From NCBI GenBank assembly GCA_963742415.1, contig CAVULX010000003.1:192001-256000 (forward strand): DNA of 64,000 nucleotides, given 5' to 3'. This DNA comes from an uncultured Parachlamydiaceae bacterium. Lineage in GTDB: Bacteria > Chlamydiota > Chlamydiia > Chlamydiales > Parachlamydiaceae. The position numbers and the translations under genes were made by a program. Positions 1,424 through 25,277 of the stretch are shown here, piece after piece. Numbering within the stretch: position 1 is the first letter of the stretch; every line of letters begins with the position of its first letter. The notes beneath the pieces were generated by a model. The model had not been told where the DNA came from, made no database searches, and worked only from the letters and a program-made list of their open reading frames with translations.

Positions 1424-3239
1424 TTAGTCGCCTGCTTTTAGAACTTCCATAAAGGCGCTTTGAGGAATATTGACTTTTCCGATTTCTTTCATCCGCTTTT
1501 TCCCTTTTTTCTGTTTTTCCCACAGCTTGCGTTTGCGGGTGATATCGCCTCCATAACATTTGGCTGTCACGTTTTTGGTGATGGCGCGGATGGTTTCGCG
1601 GGCAACGATTTTGCCTCCAATGGCTGCTTGGATAGGCACTTTGAACAGCTGCATCGGAATTACTTCGACTCAGTTTTGCGCAGATGGCGCGTCCTTTGCG
1701 ATTCAGCTTTGGAGCGATGGACGAGGCAGGAAAAGGCATCGACAGGCTCTTCGTTGACTTGGATTTCCAGCTTGATGATATCGCCTTCTTCATAGCTGTC
1801 GAATTCGTAATCAAAAGAGCCGTAGCCTTTGGTGATCGATTTGAGCTTGTCGTTGAAATCGGTGATGATTTCTTTAAGAGGAAAGCGGTAGGTCAGCAGC
1901 AGTCGTTTGGCATCCATGGTTTCTGTTTTGATGCAAACGCCCCGCTTTTCCATTCCCAGGCTCATGATGGCCCCCAGATATTCGGAAGGGGCCATGATGT
2001 GGCATTTCACCCAAGGCTCTTCGACCCATTCGATATGGCTGGGATCGGGATAATGGGCCGGGTTATCGACTTCCATCGGTGGTGCCATCATGCAGCGTAA
2101 ATTTATAGATGACGCTTGGAGCAGTAGAAATGATATCGATGTCAAATTCGCGTTGAATCCTCTCAAAGACAATTTCCAGGTGCAAGAAGCCTAGGAAGCC
2201 GCAGCGAAACCCAAATCCTAAGGCCATGCTGCTTTCCTGTTCGATATGGAGGGCGGAATCATTGAGCTGCAGCTTGACTAAAGCATCGCGCAGCGCTTCA
2301 AAATCGGTGGAATCGATCGGGTAAATCCCTGCAAAAACGACCGGAGTGATCAGTCGAAACCCAGGAAGAGGCTCTTGGGCAGGGTATTTTTGCAGGGTAA
2401 TCGTATCGCCAATTTTGACATCGGCTGGTAATTTTGATGTTGGCGACGATGTAGCCGACTTCTCCTGGACGCAGCACATCAACAGGCGTTTCTTTGGGAG
2501 TAAATTTTCCTACTTCAAGCACTTCAAAAGTTTTTGCCCGTGGCCATCATCTTGATCTCAGAGCCCTTTTTTGATTTCGCCGCTGATGATGCGGATATAG
2601 ACCATGACTCCACGGTAGATGTCATAGTGGGAATCAAAAACAAGGGCCCTTAAAATATCATCTGCAGGCTCTTTCGGCGGGGGAACCTGGGATAAAATCC
2701 TTTCGAGGATTTCATCGAATCCCTATGCCTGATTTAGCGGAGCAGCAGATCGCATCCGAAGCATCTAGTCCAATGACATCTTCAATTTGCTTGCGGACTC
2801 CTTCAACATCGGCGGTGGGCAGATCGATTTTGTTGATGACAGGAACAATTTCCAGGTTGCGTTCGAGGGCCAAATGGACATTGGCCAAGCTTTGCGCTTG
2901 GACCCCTTGCCCGGCATCGACAACCAGAAGAGCCCCTTCACAGGCAGCTAAAGAGCGGGAAACTTCATAGGTGAAATCGACATGGCCGGGTGTGTCGATC
3001 AGATTGATTTGATAAGTTTCCCCATCTTTGGCCTTGTAAAGCATCGTTACGGGATGCGCTTTAATGGTGATTCCCCGCTCCCTTTCGAGGTCCATGTCAT
3101 CGAGAACTTGCTCTTGCATTTCGCGGGCTGCGACCGTATGGGTTAGTTCTAGCAGGCGGTCGGCGAGGGTCGATTTGCCATGGTCGATATGGGCAATAAT
3201 GGAAAAATTGCGGATTTTTTTTATGTTATAAATGAACAT
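1424..3239 (-). CDS. lepA: Elongation factor 4 (LepA), split by about 7 single-base insertions (probably sequencing errors)
   Basis: Fragments in correct order: [61 protein letters not shown]. Confidence 0.95.
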
Positions 3240-3263
3240 TTTAAAAGAGATTAATAGTTTAGA

Positions 3264-3317
3264 CTTCGGTATCAGTTTACTTTATCAGTGTGTTCTTCGG
3301 TATCAGTTTACTTTATC
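3264..3317. repeat. 23-bp direct repeat (CTTCGGTATCAGTTTACTTTATC x2, 8-bp spacer) upstream of lepA
   Basis: Exact copies at 3264-3286 and 3295-3317. Confidence 0.85.
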
Positions 3318-4315: not shown

Positions 4316-6553
4316 ATGTACATTGATCAAATAAACTCAAATCAAGAAATCCATTATACAATTTTACCAAACAATCAAAAGAGTGATGAAGTTCATTTAA
4401 CGGAAAATGTGAGCTACATCCTCAAAAATGAACCAGAAAACACCTCAGAAAAAAAAGAAGCCCAAAAAAATGAATTGAATTTAGAACTATATCTATATGA
4501 AGATATTTCCCTTCTAATAGATTATATTTCACAAGAGATCAAACAATTGTCGTTACCTTTCGAAGGGACCCCGAATGTTAGTTCGGATGATGAAATTCGA
4601 AATATCGTTTCAAAAGCTCTTGCTGACATCCGGTGTATTGCCGAATTAAATCTCTATGATTCTAGGAATGTTCAGGATATTGAGGCTATTCTACACATGT
4701 TATCTTTTGGCTATTTAGAACGGAATCGCCTTGCTGAGCATCATGTTTTCAATTCTATTCTTAGTAAAAATATCGAAAAAGTTCCTCCCAACGAGCGTTT
4801 CATTGTCGTTGAACATTTGAATAAGCTTGGGAATTTACATCAATCTATTATAAACTTTAAACCTTGCTTTATTAATTTATTAAATTCTTTAGAAGATACA
4901 TATTCATTAGAACTCTTTAATGACACAGATTTTATTAAAATGAAGCATATTATTGAAGTTGCTGAAAAAATATTGCAAATGATTGAAAAAAAGCGGCAAG
5001 CGCATGCCCTTCATTTCTTTAACTGGGAAAAGGATAAAACCAAAGCTGAATTTTTGATGCAAACGATCGACGCCCTGCATTTAAATGAATTGAATAAACT
5101 GGAAAAACTATTGACGAGGATGAAAGAAAAGCTCCGCTTTTTTGGTTTTCATGATTCCATCCCCATGGAAAAAGAATCCCGTTTTCCCTCATTAAAAAAC
5201 AAAAAAGTCGTAATTTTTACCTGCAGCTTTGGCACAGGGCATAAAGTGACCGCAGGAGCTATCAAACATACACTGCAGCAAGCTCAAGCTAAAGTTTCCA
5301 TCCATGATTTATCTCTGGGAGCGCTTTTGGGACAGGATTCATATCGTTTTATTTTTAAAAAATTACAAGTTAATTATGAAAACCACCCTCTAAATAGCGT
5401 AGACCTATTTAATGAAATTTTAAAAAGGCAACTCTATTTTGTCGTTAATGCGCTCGATGAAACCGACTTTTTCGTTCGTCAATCTCTCTATCTCTCCGGA
5501 AAAAATGGGGTGGCTTCAGCTGTGGGGGTACTCAACAACAGTTGGGCAAAAACTCAGATTAGAAATCTGCTCCTCTTTGAAAGGCCTGATCATATCATTA
5601 CAGCTTATCACATGGATTTAAATCCTATTTTAGAAGTTGCTGAAGAGCTCGGCATCCCCGTATTACATGTACCCACAGATTATAACATGAAGTTTTGGGA
5701 GGTTTTCGGTGAACAGCCACCCACTTACCCCCATTTTAAAAGCTTGATCCCAAATACTGGAATAGACAGAACCTATAAAACGAAAGCACCGCTATTTTCT
5801 GAGCATGTAGTGGAAGGGGTCGGGATCCCTTTGCGAGAGGAATTTTATTCTTCGTTAACACAAGAAGAAGCCTTATCTTACAGGCAACGACGAGGAATCA
5901 AAGAGGAAGAAAAAGTGATCTTTTTATCTGCTGGTGGAAATGGTCAAAATCTCCCCCACCCTGAGTTGTTGGCTAACAGCACAACTTGGAAAAATCCCAC
6001 CCGAATCGAAATTATTGCTGGCAAAAACCGGGAATTTGTCCAATCCTTGCAACAAACATTAAAACCTGTGAATGGCAATCCTTTATTACTCCATGGAACA
6101 AACCCCTATGTCACTGTGGAGGTTGTGGCTAACCCCGATAAAAGCAAAATAGGAACGGAGGAGGAATATTTTATTCCGGCAAAAGAGCTTTCGAAAATAT
6201 TAGATATCACCGATGTCAGCATCGCCAAAGCGGGCGGCTTATCTGTATCAGAGCTTCTTTTCAAAGGGGTTCCCATTTTGTTTGACCATCGCAAAACCCC
6301 CTTTACCTGGGAGTTATTCAACATTGAAGTCACCGTTGAGGAGAATATGGGCAATAGCAATTTCTATTTAAGTGATTTAGAAAACGATTTGCAAAATATT
6401 CTACAAAGCCCAACTGGCAACAAAGAACATTTCCATTTCGAAAAAAGCCGTGAAATTCTCTGTGAAACTATTAAAGATCAAATTCATCAAGCTGAACAAG
6501 ACGTGGAAATAGCTGACAGAAGAGGCGACCTGCTTTTTCCATTAGAGTTCTAA
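4316..6553 (+). CDS. GT28-like (MGDG synthase/UgtP family) glycosyltransferase with ~295-aa N-terminal extension
   Basis: VVIFTCSFGTGHKVTA, PDHIITAYH, VPTDY, GIPLREEF, IAGKNRE and DVSIAKAGGLSVSELLFKGVP. Confidence 0.75.
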   Translation: MYIDQINSNQEIHYTILPNNQKSDEVHLTENVSYILKNEPENTSEKKEAQKNELNLELYLYEDISLLIDYISQEIKQLSLPFEGTPNVSSDDEIRNIVSKALADIRCIAELNLYDSRNVQDIEAILHMLSFGYLERNRLAEHHVFNSILSKNIEKVPPNERFIVVEHLNKLGNLHQSIINFKPCFINLLNSLEDTYSLELFNDTDFIKMKHIIEVAEKILQMIEKKRQAHALHFFNWEKDKTKAEFLMQTIDALHLNELNKLEKLLTRMKEKLRFFGFHDSIPMEKESRFPSLKNKKVVIFTCSFGTGHKVTAGAIKHTLQQAQAKVSIHDLSLGALLGQDSYRFIFKKLQVNYENHPLNSVDLFNEILKRQLYFVVNALDETDFFVRQSLYLSGKNGVASAVGVLNNSWAKTQIRNLLLFERPDHIITAYHMDLNPILEVAEELGIPVLHVPTDYNMKFWEVFGEQPPTYPHFKSLIPNTGIDRTYKTKAPLFSEHVVEGVGIPLREEFYSSLTQEEALSYRQRRGIKEEEKVIFLSAGGNGQNLPHPELLANSTTWKNPTRIEIIAGKNREFVQSLQQTLKPVNGNPLLLHGTNPYVTVEVVANPDKSKIGTEEEYFIPAKELSKILDITDVSIAKAGGLSVSELLFKGVPILFDHRKTPFTWELFNIEVTVEENMGNSNFYLSDLENDLQNILQSPTGNKEHFHFEKSREILCETIKDQIHQAEQDVEIADRRGDLLFPLEF

Positions 6554-7044: not shown

Positions 7045-8541
7045 TTATAGATTGTGCAAAATAATTTTCGAAACGCTCCCTGCTGTTACGCATGCATTGA
7101 AGAAAATATTCATCGTCTCCCGATAATAATTAACAGCATAATTCTTTGGAAAAGATCGCCCAGGGGTCAAGCTAATAGACTCCACATCGAGGGTCATTAG
7201 ATTACGAAGAAATTCTGGATCTTCTGTAGATGTAACCACAACCGACATGATAGGAAATACATCATCCATTCTAAATTCATTACCGGCATAGCGGGAACAA
7301 CATTCGTTTTTAAAATCGATGAACATCAGGACTTTTTTCCTGGGGTTGCTTTCTTTACAAAAACGAGCGGCAAATTCTTTAGCCTCTGCTTTAATGCTAA
7401 GATCTCGGACCACCTTCTTTCCAGGATCTTCCGGCTGCCCAGGACCTTTTGGATGTTTATTACCACTTGCGGTTTCATTATAAAAAACAATCATTTTCTT
7501 TTTTGCATAAGGATCAAATTTCTCGCGAATTTGTCTCTGAACAATCTCTAGATCCTCTTTAGTTTTAACCTGATTAAGTTTCTCATATAATTCCGTAAGC
7601 TCAGCATGTTCTTTGTCGGCCTCAGGGATGGCATCTATCAATCGCTTACAAATATTTTTTTCTTTCCTTAAAGCAAGGGCTTCTTCTTGTCTCTCAATTT
7701 TTCTAATTTGTTTTTGAATAAGGGCTTGCGCATAATTTTTTCGGTTTTGTAATGCAATATTCTGCTTTTCTCCAAACCTAGCAATGATATCATCCACATA
7801 CTGATCAACCATGTCTTCCTTTAAGCCAACATTGTCGTCGCTAATGAGTTTATTAATAAATCGAAGATTATCCTTTAATATCTCCGATGTGTCAAAATTG
7901 TTTTGATTAGCTAGTTCCGGCAACTGATCAGCTAGTACTGAAGTCGCATTTAAAACATCGGGAAAATGTTTATTCAATTCTAAATATAGATAATTAAGCA
8001 GATCCATATAGAGATCTTTTGGGTTTTGTGTTTCTATTAATTCTTTCTTCAATCTATTTTGCAAACGTTCACTTTCTAAAGGTGCATAAAATTCAAGAAA
8101 ATCGAGAAGCTCAGAACTAGAATTTGCTAAGCGGGAATTTTCCGGAGTTTGGATTGAAGATATTATTAATTCGTTTTTTATAGCTGCCTTCAAAGGCTCA
8201 AGTTTTTCCCTAGTTGAAATCTCCGTATTTGAAAGAGTCCCTGCGAATTTTTTCCATAGATGGATGATTTTGTTAACCATCTTTCCTAGAACACCCTCCT
8301 TTGAAGAAGCCTCTTGGATGATTTGAATATCTGCACTTAATTGATAGAGTTGAGGGCGAGACAAATGAGCATCCTCTAACTCGTTAACTGCTTGATTTAC
8401 AATGGCTTCTATCGATTGATTATTTAAATTACTGGAGATCTCATTTAGATATTCGTCTTTATATCCATTTTTTTCAATATTATGGACACATTGATGAAAT
8501 GCATCTACTATTCTTGAAGGTTCTGTAACGACTATTTTCAT
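7045..8541 (-). CDS. Hypothetical coiled-coil protein with C-terminal VPS9-like motifs; candidate effector
   Basis: 498-aa AT-rich ORF; C-terminus SNPRKKV...MDDVFPIMSVVV...NYYRETM resembles the VPS9 consensus. Confidence 0.55.
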   Translation of the reverse strand: MKIVVTEPSRIVDAFHQCVHNIEKNGYKDEYLNEISSNLNNQSIEAIVNQAVNELEDAHLSRPQLYQLSADIQIIQEASSKEGVLGKMVNKIIHLWKKFAGTLSNTEISTREKLEPLKAAIKNELIISSIQTPENSRLANSSSELLDFLEFYAPLESERLQNRLKKELIETQNPKDLYMDLLNYLYLELNKHFPDVLNATSVLADQLPELANQNNFDTSEILKDNLRFINKLISDDNVGLKEDMVDQYVDDIIARFGEKQNIALQNRKNYAQALIQKQIRKIERQEEALALRKEKNICKRLIDAIPEADKEHAELTELYEKLNQVKTKEDLEIVQRQIREKFDPYAKKKMIVFYNETASGNKHPKGPGQPEDPGKKVVRDLSIKAEAKEFAARFCKESNPRKKVLMFIDFKNECCSRYAGNEFRMDDVFPIMSVVVTSTEDPEFLRNLMTLDVESISLTPGRSFPKNYAVNYYRETMNIFFNACVTAGSVSKIILHNL

Positions 8542-8866: not shown

Positions 8867-10015
8867 ATGCCCTCTATATACACAAAAACGAACCCCTTCC
8901 TTGCTACAATTAAAGAGAGATACCCCCTCTGCAAACCGGGTTCTTCAAAATATACCCATCATGTTGTGTTAGACCTCAAAGGATCTGAAATTGCCCATGA
9001 GGTGGGGGATAGCATCGCCATTTTCCCCGAGCATGACCCTATCTTAGTTCAACGCACGCTCAAAGCTTTAGGGATGACAGGGGCAGAAATCATTCTCGAT
9101 AAACACACGGGGGAATCTGTCAGCCTGCAGATCTTTTTAACCAAGCTTGCAAATATCACTGACATCAACCGTAAACTATTGCAGGAGACTGCTTTACGAC
9201 AAAACAACCCCAAAAAGAAAGAGCATTTGCAATTTTTAATCGGTGAGGAGAACAAAGACGCTTTAAAAGAATACCTTTCGAAAAGGGAATTGTGGGATTT
9301 TTTAGAGGAAAACAATGAAGTTGTCTTCACCCCAGAGGAGATTTCGCTCCTTATTCAGCCGATGCTCCCCCGCTTTTACTCCATTGCTTCTTCAATGGAA
9401 GCCGTTGGGGAAGAGGTCCATTTAACAGTTTCTTATGTGAAATATACTTCTCATAATCAATTGCGCCTAGGGGTTTGCAGCCACTATTTATGTGATTTGG
9501 CTCCCTTAAACCAAGCTGTCATCCCCGTTTATATTCAATCCCATCGTGGATTTACCCTGCCGACAAATTCCTCTTCAGCTTTGATCATGATAGGCCCGGG
9601 AACAGGAATCGCCCCCTACCGAGGATTTATGCAGGAACGGATGGTGAAAGGGGCTACAGGGAAAAATTGGCTTTTTTTTGGCGAATGCAACCGCGCCTAT
9701 GACTATTTTTACGAGGAATTTTGGGAAAAGCTGAAAGCTGAGGGAAAGTTAAACATCGATCTGGCTTTTTCCCGGGATCAAGAGCATAAAATCTATGTCC
9801 AACATCGGATGTTGGAACAATCTGAAAAATTATTTCAATGGCTCGAGGCAGGAGCTTACCTGTTTGTTTGCGGCGATGCCCACCGGATGGCCAAAGACGT
9901 GGACGCCGTTCTCCATCAAATTATTCAAGAACAGGGGCGCATGGATGAACAAGCGGTTAAAGCTTACGTAAAAAGATTGCGAGCCGAAAAGCGATATCTT
10001 CGTGATGTTTATTAG
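8867..10015 (+). CDS. cysJ: CysJ-like FAD/NADPH-dependent oxidoreductase lacking the N-terminal flavodoxin domain
   Basis: PRFYSIASS, GVCSHYL, IMIGPGTGIAPYRGF, AFSRDQ.KIYVQH and YLRDVY. Confidence 0.85.
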   Translation: MPSIYTKTNPFLATIKERYPLCKPGSSKYTHHVVLDLKGSEIAHEVGDSIAIFPEHDPILVQRTLKALGMTGAEIILDKHTGESVSLQIFLTKLANITDINRKLLQETALRQNNPKKKEHLQFLIGEENKDALKEYLSKRELWDFLEENNEVVFTPEEISLLIQPMLPRFYSIASSMEAVGEEVHLTVSYVKYTSHNQLRLGVCSHYLCDLAPLNQAVIPVYIQSHRGFTLPTNSSSALIMIGPGTGIAPYRGFMQERMVKGATGKNWLFFGECNRAYDYFYEEFWEKLKAEGKLNIDLAFSRDQEHKIYVQHRMLEQSEKLFQWLEAGAYLFVCGDAHRMAKDVDAVLHQIIQEQGRMDEQAVKAYVKRLRAEKRYLRDVY

Positions 10016-10160
10016 TGTGGGTTTTGATTTTTTTCTCCTCTCATCCTAATCACTAACAATTTTTCCTCGAACTAAAAATTTAAAGCAATAATTGTTGTTT
10101 ATTTTTTTATATTAAAACTGTTATATTTGTTTTTCTATTTTTAATAAACTGGAGAATGGA

Positions 10161-11069
10161 ATGAGTATCAATTTAAATATAAATATAAATGTGACCCAAA
10201 ATTTTAACTATCCTATTTCGGATGTTGTCGAAAATAATGAACTGTCGGAAGGTCTAGAAAAAACGGCTGTTAATGTGCTTAGGATGCTTTCCCAACAACC
10301 AACAATTTTAGGCATTCAAACTGCTCCTAAAAGAAAAAGAGAAGGTAGTGATCAAGACAGTTCAAGAAATGTAAGACCTTTTAGCAGAACCCCTAAGCAA
10401 AAAACAAAAGAAATAAAGAAAAAAAGCGTATCTCGATGGACGAAAGAGGATGATAAAAAACTACTCGATTTAATGTTGAACAGAGATCCAGAAACAAGAA
10501 ATGAATGGGCTTCCATCTCTCAACAATTCCCAAATAAAACTCCCGATGGTATTAGAAAACGGTGGACTCTCAATGTCAACCCCATCTTGAAACATGGAGA
10601 TTGGGAAAAAGTGGAAGATGACAAACTTTTAAAGAGCGTCGATGAACGTAAAGATAGCGATGGGGACATTCCATGGACAGAAATCTCTGAAGATATCTTT
10701 AACGGCACCCGATCACCTTCTCAAGTGAAAAGAAGATATACACTGATCAATCCAAACTTTTCTAAAAAATGGACTCCGGAAGAGACGAAAAATCTCGAAG
10801 AAGCTTATAAAATAACTCCAAATAAATGGGAAGCAATAAGTAAAAAAGTAGGTGGACATGATGCGCGAGCCTGCCGACAAAAGATGCAGTGCTTAACAAA
10901 ACCATCCATAAAAGGAAAATGGACTGAAGAACAGGACCAAAAACTTACTAGGGCTGTTGGTCAATTTGGACCTTCTAATATTACGCGGATTAGACAAGAA
11001 TTTTTCAATTCTGAGCGATCAGAAGTCCAAATACGTGGAAGAATAAGAGATTTAAAATTAAAAAAATAA
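10161..11069 (+). CDS. Eukaryote-type Myb/SANT repeat protein (4 repeats)
   Basis: Repeats RWTKEDDKKL..W..I...RKRW, GDWEKVEDDKL..W, KWTPEETKNL..W and GKWTEEQDQKL; basic PKRKRE motif upstream. Confidence 0.85.
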   Translation: MSINLNININVTQNFNYPISDVVENNELSEGLEKTAVNVLRMLSQQPTILGIQTAPKRKREGSDQDSSRNVRPFSRTPKQKTKEIKKKSVSRWTKEDDKKLLDLMLNRDPETRNEWASISQQFPNKTPDGIRKRWTLNVNPILKHGDWEKVEDDKLLKSVDERKDSDGDIPWTEISEDIFNGTRSPSQVKRRYTLINPNFSKKWTPEETKNLEEAYKITPNKWEAISKKVGGHDARACRQKMQCLTKPSIKGKWTEEQDQKLTRAVGQFGPSNITRIRQEFFNSERSEVQIRGRIRDLKLKK

Positions 11070-11102
11070 ACTTATACAGTAAAACACTCTCGTTTGCCTA
11101 AT

Positions 11103-11148
11103 AAAAAAACCATAGAGGCAGTGATCTCACTGACTTTGTGGTTTTTTT
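11103..11148. repeat. Short palindrome related to family B, between convergent genes; likely bidirectional terminator
   Basis: AAAAAAACCATAGAGGCAGTGA-TC-TCACTGACTTTGTGGTTTTTTT. Confidence 0.6.
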
Positions 11149-11161
11149 ATTTGCCTAATTT

Positions 11162-11659
11162 TCACTGTTCTTCGGTACACAATTCCTGTGTGGTGACGAG
11201 TGCGAAGCATTGCACTCCGTCACCGCATCCAAAATCTGTAAGCCCTTCACCTGAGGTCGCTGTGATCCCCACTTGGGAGATCTCGATCTCCATCACCCGG
11301 GCAATATTGGTGCGCATCTCGAGGAGTTTATCTTTCATTTTTGGCCTTTTGGCTTCGATGGTAATGGCCACGTGGGTGATTTTTTGCTGTTTTAATGTTT
11401 TCATCGCTTCCCGAAGATAGACCTCGCTATCCGTGATTCCATCTTTCAAACAAAGATCGTCTGCAATAGCTCCCAAAATTAGGATCCCTGTGAGGGAAGA
11501 GATGGCATTGCAAATGGCATGAAATACGACATCTCCGTCTGAATTAGCCATAAAGCCGGGAACATCATTAAAAATAACTCCAGCGATGATGCAGGGTTTC
11601 GAGGATTCAGGAGGAAGAAAGCGGTGGCTGTCTTGTCCAATTCCGGTTCGCGTAGCCAT
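11162..11659 (-). CDS. ispF: 2-C-methyl-D-erythritol 2,4-cyclodiphosphate synthase
   Basis: [25 protein letters not shown] and [10 protein letters not shown]. Confidence 0.95.
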
Positions 11660-24878: not shown

Positions 24879-25277
24879 TTACCAGCCCCAAGAGAATCCG
24901 ACAGATGGGTTGTCATAATAGTAGTTATATGGATCGTAGTAACCGCCGTCGTTATAATAGGGATAATAATAGTTATTATAATAGGGATAACCACCATAGA
25001 AGTAGTAACCTTGATTCCATCCGCCATCCCAACGATCTCCATCATGAAAATGGCCGCCATCGCGGAAGCCACCTCCGCGGAATCCTCCACCATCGCGGAA
25101 TCCTCCGCCGTGTCCTCCACCGCCATGACCACCATGGCCACCATGATCCGCTACTTGCGTAGGTGCATTACTTACACCAATCCCTTCGCTTGCTAAGGCT
25201 TTTTCAATACCAAAAGGAGCGACCATTATAAAAAGTAATAATGCAATGGGCACATAATAGCGTTTAAGGAAATACAT
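24879..25277 (-). CDS. Secreted Gly/His- and Tyr-rich low-complexity protein
   Basis: Signal-peptide-like N-terminus, GGHGG/GGGFR repeats, YYPYY tract and C-terminal FSWGW; RBS GGGAGG upstream. Confidence 0.75.
   Translation of the reverse strand: MYFLKRYYVPIALLLFIMVAPFGIEKALASEGIGVSNAPTQVADHGGHGGHGGGGHGGGFRDGGGFRGGGFRDGGHFHDGDRWDGGWNQGYYFYGGYPYYNNYYYPYYNDGGYYDPYNYYYDNPSVGFSWGW

Follow-up and report, generated by a model that had tools for sequence, protein, structure and literature searches.

An uncultured bacterium of the Parachlamydiaceae carries a gene for a protein composed of four tandem Myb repeats of the eukaryotic type. The gene lies in a 64,000-nucleotide stretch of assembly GCA_963742415.1, referred to here as the window (bases 192001-256000 of the 998-kb contig CAVULX010000003.1; genome 2.69 Mb, four contigs, GC 0.42). 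There, an open reading frame (ORF) for 302 amino acids runs from an ATG start at position 10161 to position 11069 of the forward strand, stop codon included. It is a genuine chromosomal gene, inserted between a cysJ-like gene and ispF in this lineage only, and it belongs to a set of Myb-domain genes that is patchily distributed among environmental chlamydiae and has expanded repeatedly. An earlier note, written from the letters of the window before any database search, had proposed that the product is secreted and acts in the nucleus of the host. We put the probability of that reading, an injected nuclear DNA-binder, at about 0.45.

The match to Myb is far above chance. The profile search that the note had proposed places Pfam family PF00249 (Myb_DNA-binding) on four separate stretches of the protein, with an expectation value (E) of 1.6e-28 and 99 bits (cut-off 24.4); PF13921 (Myb_DNA-bind_6) matches with E 1.2e-27 and 96.3 bits (cut-off 22.9). 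The four tandem repeats that had been read by eye are thereby borne out. The repeat strings quoted at the time (WTKEDDKKL, RKRW, GDWEKVEDDKL, KWTPEETKNL, and GKWTEEQDQKL) all occur in the translation, as do the c-Myb-like linkers NPILKHGDW and KPSIKGKWT.

Tryptophan occupies eight of the twelve canonical positions (93, 116, 135, 148, 172, 204, 223, and 254); the remaining four hold Y193, M242, I274, and I295, and spacings range from 19 to 24 residues. All four repeats lie on the forward strand: repeat 1, residues 91-143 (10431..10589; W93, W116, W135); repeat 2, residues 144-200 (10590..10760; W148, W172, Y193), in which the loop between helices 1 and 2 is longer; repeat 3, residues 201-249 (10761..10907; W204, W223, M242), which includes the best Pfam stretch (202-241); and repeat 4, residues 250-302 (10908..11066; W254, I274, I295), the end of which is also the end of the protein. 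The last 22 residues of each repeat, with the third helix inside, bear a net charge of +3 to +5 in all four cases. Because these third-helix regions are basic, a DNA-binding Myb domain fits better than a histone-binding SANT domain.

Compared with one another, the repeats reach at best 18 identical residues of 52, and foreign repeats reach 34-50%. A recent internal duplication of repeats was considered and is ruled out, mutual likeness being no higher than likeness to foreign repeats. The repeats are as divergent from each other as from foreign ones, which argues that the four-repeat block is old.

Structure prediction gives the same picture. The AlphaFold2 model, built on a 44-sequence alignment, has a mean predicted local distance difference test score (pLDDT) of 79.1. 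It contains four three-helix bundles from residue 91 to the C-terminus, with scores of 76-97 (mostly above 90) in blocks of ten residues; residues 1-25 and 47-88 are disordered. In a Foldseek comparison with the PDB, the top ranks go to SNAPC4 (7xur_A), c-Myb (1h88_C), Reb1, and Trichomonas Myb2, with probability 1.00 for SNAPC4, c-Myb, and Trichomonas Myb2. A phmmer search of PDB sequences returns c-Myb R1R2R3 (1h88_C; E 2.1e-12) and SNAPC4 (2.2e-12), followed at lower ranks by B-Myb, Trichomonas Myb proteins, and Cdc5/CEF1. Sequence and fold matches therefore agree on the eukaryotic-type resemblance (c-Myb, SNAPC4, Cdc5) noted at the outset. No domain besides the Myb repeats is recognized, and the sequence stops with repeat 4. 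Bacteria have Myb-like regulators of their own, such as those of the RsfA type; the window protein matches no curated bacterial family (NCBIfam, none at E <=0.01).

One close comparison is with the 3R-Myb proteins c-Myb, A-Myb, and B-Myb. Repeats 1-3 are collinear with R1R2R3 (query residues 91-238 against 1h88_C chain residues 7-147), linker length is the same, the NPxLxKGxW junctions are kept, and the repeats have the same three-helix form. In contrast to these proteins, the window protein has a fourth repeat and then nothing; it is without transactivation or negative-regulatory domains; only about 30% of residues are identical; repeats 2-4 have Y, M, and I in place of the third tryptophan; and its gene is bacterial. 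SNAPC4 (SNAP190) is the best Foldseek match over 218 columns, and both proteins have at least four consecutive Myb repeats. However, SNAPC4 comprises 1469 residues with SNAPc-assembly regions, against 302 residues without them, and only the repeats match: SNAPC4 has four and a half, and identity in the structural alignment is 19-23%.

The gene is embedded in ordinary chlamydial surroundings, 10 kb inside the window. Upstream, on the same strand, a gene for a CysJ C-terminal-type FAD/NAD(P)H flavoprotein (8867..10015, forward strand) ends 145 nt before the Myb ATG. Downstream, ispF (YgbB family; 11162..11659, reverse strand) is convergent. A GGAG Shine-Dalgarno-like motif (10151..10154, forward strand) is placed 6 nt before the ATG. 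Between the convergent Myb and ispF ends is an inverted repeat with 32-nt arms, 81% complementary and flanked by A and T runs (11093..11158). Apart from its core, no terminator-like site was found in 9900-11300, which includes the stretch between the cysJ-like gene and the Myb ATG; the repeat is probably a two-way terminator. The gene was said to be AT-rich, and it is: GC is 0.363, and GC at third codon positions (GC3) is 0.275, the 3.4th percentile of 1273 ORFs of at least 250 residues (mean GC3 0.417). Its synonymous-codon score stands at the 89.8th percentile of the genome, typical or better.

The genes around it are 70-92% identical to counterparts in metagenome-assembled genomes (MAGs) of Parachlamydiaceae. 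The gene for MurA lies 0.9 kb downstream; its product shares 92% identity with MurA of one such MAG (locus L013), and a search with MurA returned 80 related loci, all from chlamydial or chlamydia-like MAGs (some filed under Verrucomicrobia). The cysJ-like and ispF genes are both present with their C-termini in 30 of these 80 loci, and are convergent in all 30; the note was thus right in placing the two genes as neighbors. The gap between the two genes is at most 241 nt in 22 of the 30 and only 5 nt in L013, the closest relative, compared with 1146 nt here. Neither the 80 loci (tblastn, E <=1e-5) nor the whole genome from which L013 comes (G410, PF00249) contains a Myb match. Since the neighbors abut in the closest relative and Myb is missing from all 80 loci, the gene is an insertion, not contamination.

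The other eight of the 30 loci contain unrelated inserts of 665-2559 nt at the same junction, which makes it a recurrent landing site. Beyond AT-rich chance matches, no convincing flanking direct or inverted repeats were found that could be read as scars of a mobile element. One of the foreign inserts (L035, 1664-4224) has an ORF with the sequence HPFEDGNGRIGR, presumably a Fic-type motif, adjoining a 390-residue ORF. Another (L043, 2005-2671) consists of two small overlapping ORFs, one of them helix-turn-helix-like in appearance; L039, L081, and L083 also have unrelated inserts.

Where the protein came from is less easily read. A collection of 1.84 billion representative proteins yields 5321 matches at E <=1e-3, none above about 33-38% identity. 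The best non-self match, P0002, is 33% identical, with 209 bits summed over many repeats. Ranked by best single alignment, all relatives are near 30%: the top one is a 475-residue protein of the Parachlamydiaceae genome G288 (33% over 195 residues, 97 bits), and P0002 is second (32%). Among the top 30 matches, the named organisms that were looked up are all eukaryotes, and one entry, P0007, comes from genome G288. Named relatives include chytrid and other early-diverging fungi (Quaeritorhiza, Paraglomus, Bifiguratus, and Calcarisporiella), the ichthyosporean Creolimax, and the chrysophyte Chlorochromonas. ESM Atlas neighbors with recorded taxa are 100% Eukaryota.

Searches at closer range return little. 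At near lengths, a word-indexed protein search finds nothing but the window protein (1 of 1348 candidates); at longer lengths it finds two distant eukaryotic proteins, a coral protein among them. No relative was found by tblastn in viral contigs or metagenome contigs. A scan of genome contigs with P0002 gave three weak loci, all in MAGs unrelated to one another, and a scan with P0003 gave no locus. (P0002, of 688 residues, and P0003, of 465, both have eight to ten Myb repeats after a hydrophobic N-terminus that resembles a signal peptide; the contigs of P0003 and P0014 are equally long, at 24917, and may be a single contig with two such genes.)

A quick IQ-TREE tree was made for the three-and-a-half-repeat block from 112 rows: the window protein, and subjects whose best high-scoring segment pair runs from query residue 100 or earlier to 262 or later with E <=1e-8. 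The window protein sits on a long branch (1.07), and no set is supported at 95 or above. The nearest rows by path are G288 proteins, with support of 44-87 on the joining branches. The claim of a particular donor was rejected as unsupported, given a tree without a set at 95 or above and relatives at about 30-38% from scattered eukaryotes; because the named relatives belong to scattered eukaryotic groups, no donor can be named. The earlier description of the protein as host-derived is therefore upheld as to its eukaryotic type but not as to any named donor, its relatives being scattered eukaryotes, metagenome proteins, and another chlamydia. The gene may reflect an older acquisition shared with other Parachlamydiaceae.

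Myb-domain genes are found elsewhere in the phylum, in a patchy manner. Of the 401 Chlamydiota genomes sampled, 24 have a PF00249 match (20 over cut-off), as do 10 of 45 genomes of the same family, the source genome not counted. Frames with at least three repeats are present in four genomes: the source genome, G288, G211, and G250. In genome G288 (loci L124, G288:C1:1210001-1230000, and L125), at least eight multi-repeat Myb genes, encoding 191-825 residues, form a cluster, and a ninth gene lies 420 kb from it. These genes have 2-12 W-x-x-E-E motifs, a common N-terminus, and a common C-terminal region: all of the proteins begin MNIGISN.Y.EQV, and most have an acidic/hydrophobic tail in common. 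(In one copy, two transposase-like ORFs at L124 14248-16013 interrupt the gene.) The cluster, to which P0007 belongs, resembles the window gene in bacterial family, in domain type, and in being without a Sec-type signal. It differs in size (400-825 residues), in number of repeats (4-12 by motif count), and in consisting of clustered paralogues with common termini; moreover, its proteins show no N-terminal similarity to the window protein, and their grouping in the tree is without strong support.

The source genome itself contains six further, far more divergent Myb-domain ORFs. Four are in tandem on contig 4 (247, 274, 287, and 215 residues; G000:C4:318218-321855, forward strand), all with an N-terminal I-x-x-I-W motif, and two are in tandem on contig 3 (168 and 161 residues; G000:C3:887165-888361, reverse strand). 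Five of the six match a Myb Pfam family above its cut-off, and the 215-residue ORF matches none. These ORFs were considered as close paralogues of the window gene, and this is ruled out: a phmmer search of genome ORFs of at least 70 residues finds only the window protein itself. One of the contig-4 ORFs has KKRKRD and, eight residues later, KRKKR, a bipartite pattern resembling a nuclear localization signal (NLS). Taken together, patchy occurrence, tandem expansion, and variable repeat number are as expected of host-directed accessory genes, unlike a core regulator.

The 90 residues that precede the repeats are largely disordered and basic, with a net charge of +9 over residues 46-90. The N-terminus proper (residues 1-25; 10161..10235, forward strand) is rich in Asn and Ile, as had been seen from the sequence (seven Asn and four Ile), with pLDDT below 50 and without a hydrophobic Sec-type core. 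It is a candidate secretion signal, compatible with the type III kind though not diagnostic of it. The sole predicted helix of the region follows at residues 26-45 (10236..10295, forward strand). Both basic clusters listed in the earlier note are in place ahead of the repeats: PKRKRE (residues 56-61), in which KRKR (residues 57-60; 10329..10340, forward strand) forms a monopartite NLS-like cluster within a disordered stretch, and KQKTKEIKKK (residues 79-88; 10395..10424, forward strand), immediately before repeat 1. KRKR is the only strict NLS-like motif in the protein, which has no bipartite pattern, and it is weak evidence of nuclear targeting. The genome encodes two FHIPEP (SctV/FlhA-type) export-gate proteins (842 and 722 bits); FHIPEP was the one component of the type III apparatus searched, and its profile covers SctV and FlhA alike.

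Secretion, nuclear import, and DNA binding are steps that we infer, and they can be assembled into a provisional model. The protein would be made in the bacterium, possibly from a read-through transcript of the cysJ-like gene; it would be exported into a protist host by a type III system through its unstructured N-terminus; import into the nucleus would be aided by the KRKR and Lys-rich clusters; and host DNA would be bound through the basic third helices of the four repeats. The most likely action would be to occupy, or to compete for, the sites of host Myb-type factors. This is the simplest model because no activation or enzymatic domain is recognizable. Alternatively, the protein might recruit a partner through the helix at residues 26-45.

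Several observations weigh against export and nuclear action. The base contacts of c-Myb, which we take to be K128, K182, and N183 (AAC-reading), are changed: K128 corresponds to S or P, K182 to R239, and N183 to Q240, with the register near R2 uncertain by one residue. With those contacts not conserved, the target sequence cannot be guessed. Runs of at least four K/R residues are common: of the genome's 1533 long ORFs, 149 have one. The gene is without orthologues, and its N-terminus (residues 1-90) matches no other genome ORF of at least 70 residues by phmmer, so it is without a shared effector module. No promoter-like site precedes the Myb ATG in a consensus scan (three sites in the region, 3.4 expected). 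Finally, chlamydiae use eukaryote-like chromatin proteins inside the bacterium (Hc1/Hc2 and SWIB-domain proteins), so a eukaryote-like DNA binder need not be exported. An example listed in PMC7819608 is cpnSET, which methylates Hc1/Hc2.

That precedent for internal use favors a serious rival, even if we judge it unlikely on balance: the acquired DNA binder stays in the bacterium, where the chlamydial chromosome has come to use it as a regulator or nucleoid-associated protein, for example in the developmental cycle. Bacterial Myb-type domains on bacterial DNA do exist, PF00249 matching Bacillus subtilis among 14 control genomes, and co-transcription with the housekeeping-type cysJ-like gene is possible given that no terminator-like site was found between the two. 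Such a role is harder to reconcile with the fact that neither the closest relative's genome nor any of the 80 syntenic loci has the gene, with a spread over 24 of 401 genomes that is unlike that of a core regulator, and with the lack of any NCBIfam match. Moreover, we know of no bacterial regulator with c-Myb-type linkers and four tandem repeats.

The gene could also be a recently acquired passenger without selected function, intact only through its youth. This is improbable, although it would account for a singleton with no relative above about 38% identity, for the low GC3, and for residence at a junction that collects unrelated inserts. The 302-codon frame is open, in an assembly where the conserved lepA-like gene elsewhere in the window is broken up across several frames; the Myb gene has a ribosome site and a terminator-like hairpin; the four repeats fold confidently in the AlphaFold2 model, with their hydrophobic cores kept; and the synonymous-codon score is typical of the genome or better. 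Least credible, and very improbable indeed, is an assembly chimera or contamination from a eukaryotic host inside the bacterial contig. A eukaryotic-type protein with deviant GC3, in an assembly that shows signs of indel errors, would suit it, but the gene reads through as one ORF without interruption, has a GGAG ribosome site, and is part of a 1.1-kb insert 10 kb into the window on a 998-kb contig, with conserved chlamydial genes on both sides.

The reading as an injected nuclear DNA-binder has models among known effectors. TAL effectors combine tandem DNA-reading repeats with NLS motifs. Nucleomodulins whose target is host DNA or chromatin are described in the review PMC7819608. They include Xanthomonas TAL effectors, Anaplasma AnkA, and Chlamydia NUE and SinC, the two Chlamydia proteins being substrates of the type III system. 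The logic proposed for the window protein would be similar: a secreted bacterial protein enters the host nucleus and acts on DNA or chromatin. However, none of TAL, AnkA, NUE, and SinC uses Myb repeats, and in the passages of that review covered here "Myb" comes up just once, in a reference about MYB30 as a host target.

A parallel in domain type comes from endosymbiotic Clostridia of protists. According to PMC10579323, these bacteria have Myb-like eukaryotic-like proteins, thought to have been acquired from eukaryotes; Legionella and Chlamydiota are named there as other clades with such eukaryote-type proteins. The likeness lies in the presence of Myb-type transcription-factor domains in intracellular bacteria of protists. 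Beyond a passing sentence in that paper, full-text literature searches turned up no account of chlamydial Myb-repeat proteins or of nucleomodulins of the Myb type. What is notable here is the complete multi-repeat transcription-factor DNA-binding module, together with a wider, undescribed set of Parachlamydiaceae Myb genes; eukaryote-like proteins and candidate nucleomodulins of intracellular bacteria were already known.

Tentatively, the proposal may be extended from one protein to many. Environmental chlamydiae might deploy a class of injected Myb-repeat DNA-binding effectors, each combining an unstructured secretion N-terminus, basic import motifs, and a variable number of repeats (four here, up to about twelve in G288). 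Such a class would be the chlamydial counterpart of TAL effectors in logic, rewriting protist host transcription on Myb-factor sites.

Other genes of the window deserve brief mention. The lepA-like gene (1424-3281, reverse strand) is a conserved translation-GTPase gene in at least five stop-to-stop pieces in different frames, with a GTP_EFTU domain at 2712-3239 and EFG_C at 1660-2172, which suggests a LepA/EF4-like protein. It is either a pseudogene or a product of assembly indel errors, with which a marker-gene completeness of 84% would also be consistent. A 498-residue ORF directly upstream of the cysJ-like gene (7045-8541, reverse strand; GC 0.355) has neither a Pfam match above cut-off nor an NCBIfam match. 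It has no tblastn relative in the 80 related loci, several of which reach at least 3 kb beyond cysJ, and it may be another lineage-specific accessory gene. A 745-residue ORF (4316-6553, forward strand) has no Pfam match at E <=0.001; its residues 294-585 show a weak likeness to diglucosyl diacylglycerol synthases (54 bits in NCBIfam, where the cut-off is 500), which leaves its first 290 residues unassigned.

The Myb gene is small and modular, with a soluble-looking product, so assays of secretion, localization, and DNA motif would be simple, and the G288 paralogue cluster offers a natural series of repeat numbers for comparison. Chlamydial nuclear effectors known so far are enzymes or envelope binders (NUE and SinC), and effectors that read sequence directly are known mainly from plant pathogens (TAL effectors). 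If it acts internally, the window protein would be one of the rare instances in which bacteria have domesticated a eukaryotic transcription-factor fold with multiple repeats as a regulator. If it is secreted, it would mimic a transcription factor with a DNA-reading module that is the host's own, and would provide a handle on how amoeba symbionts reprogram their hosts.

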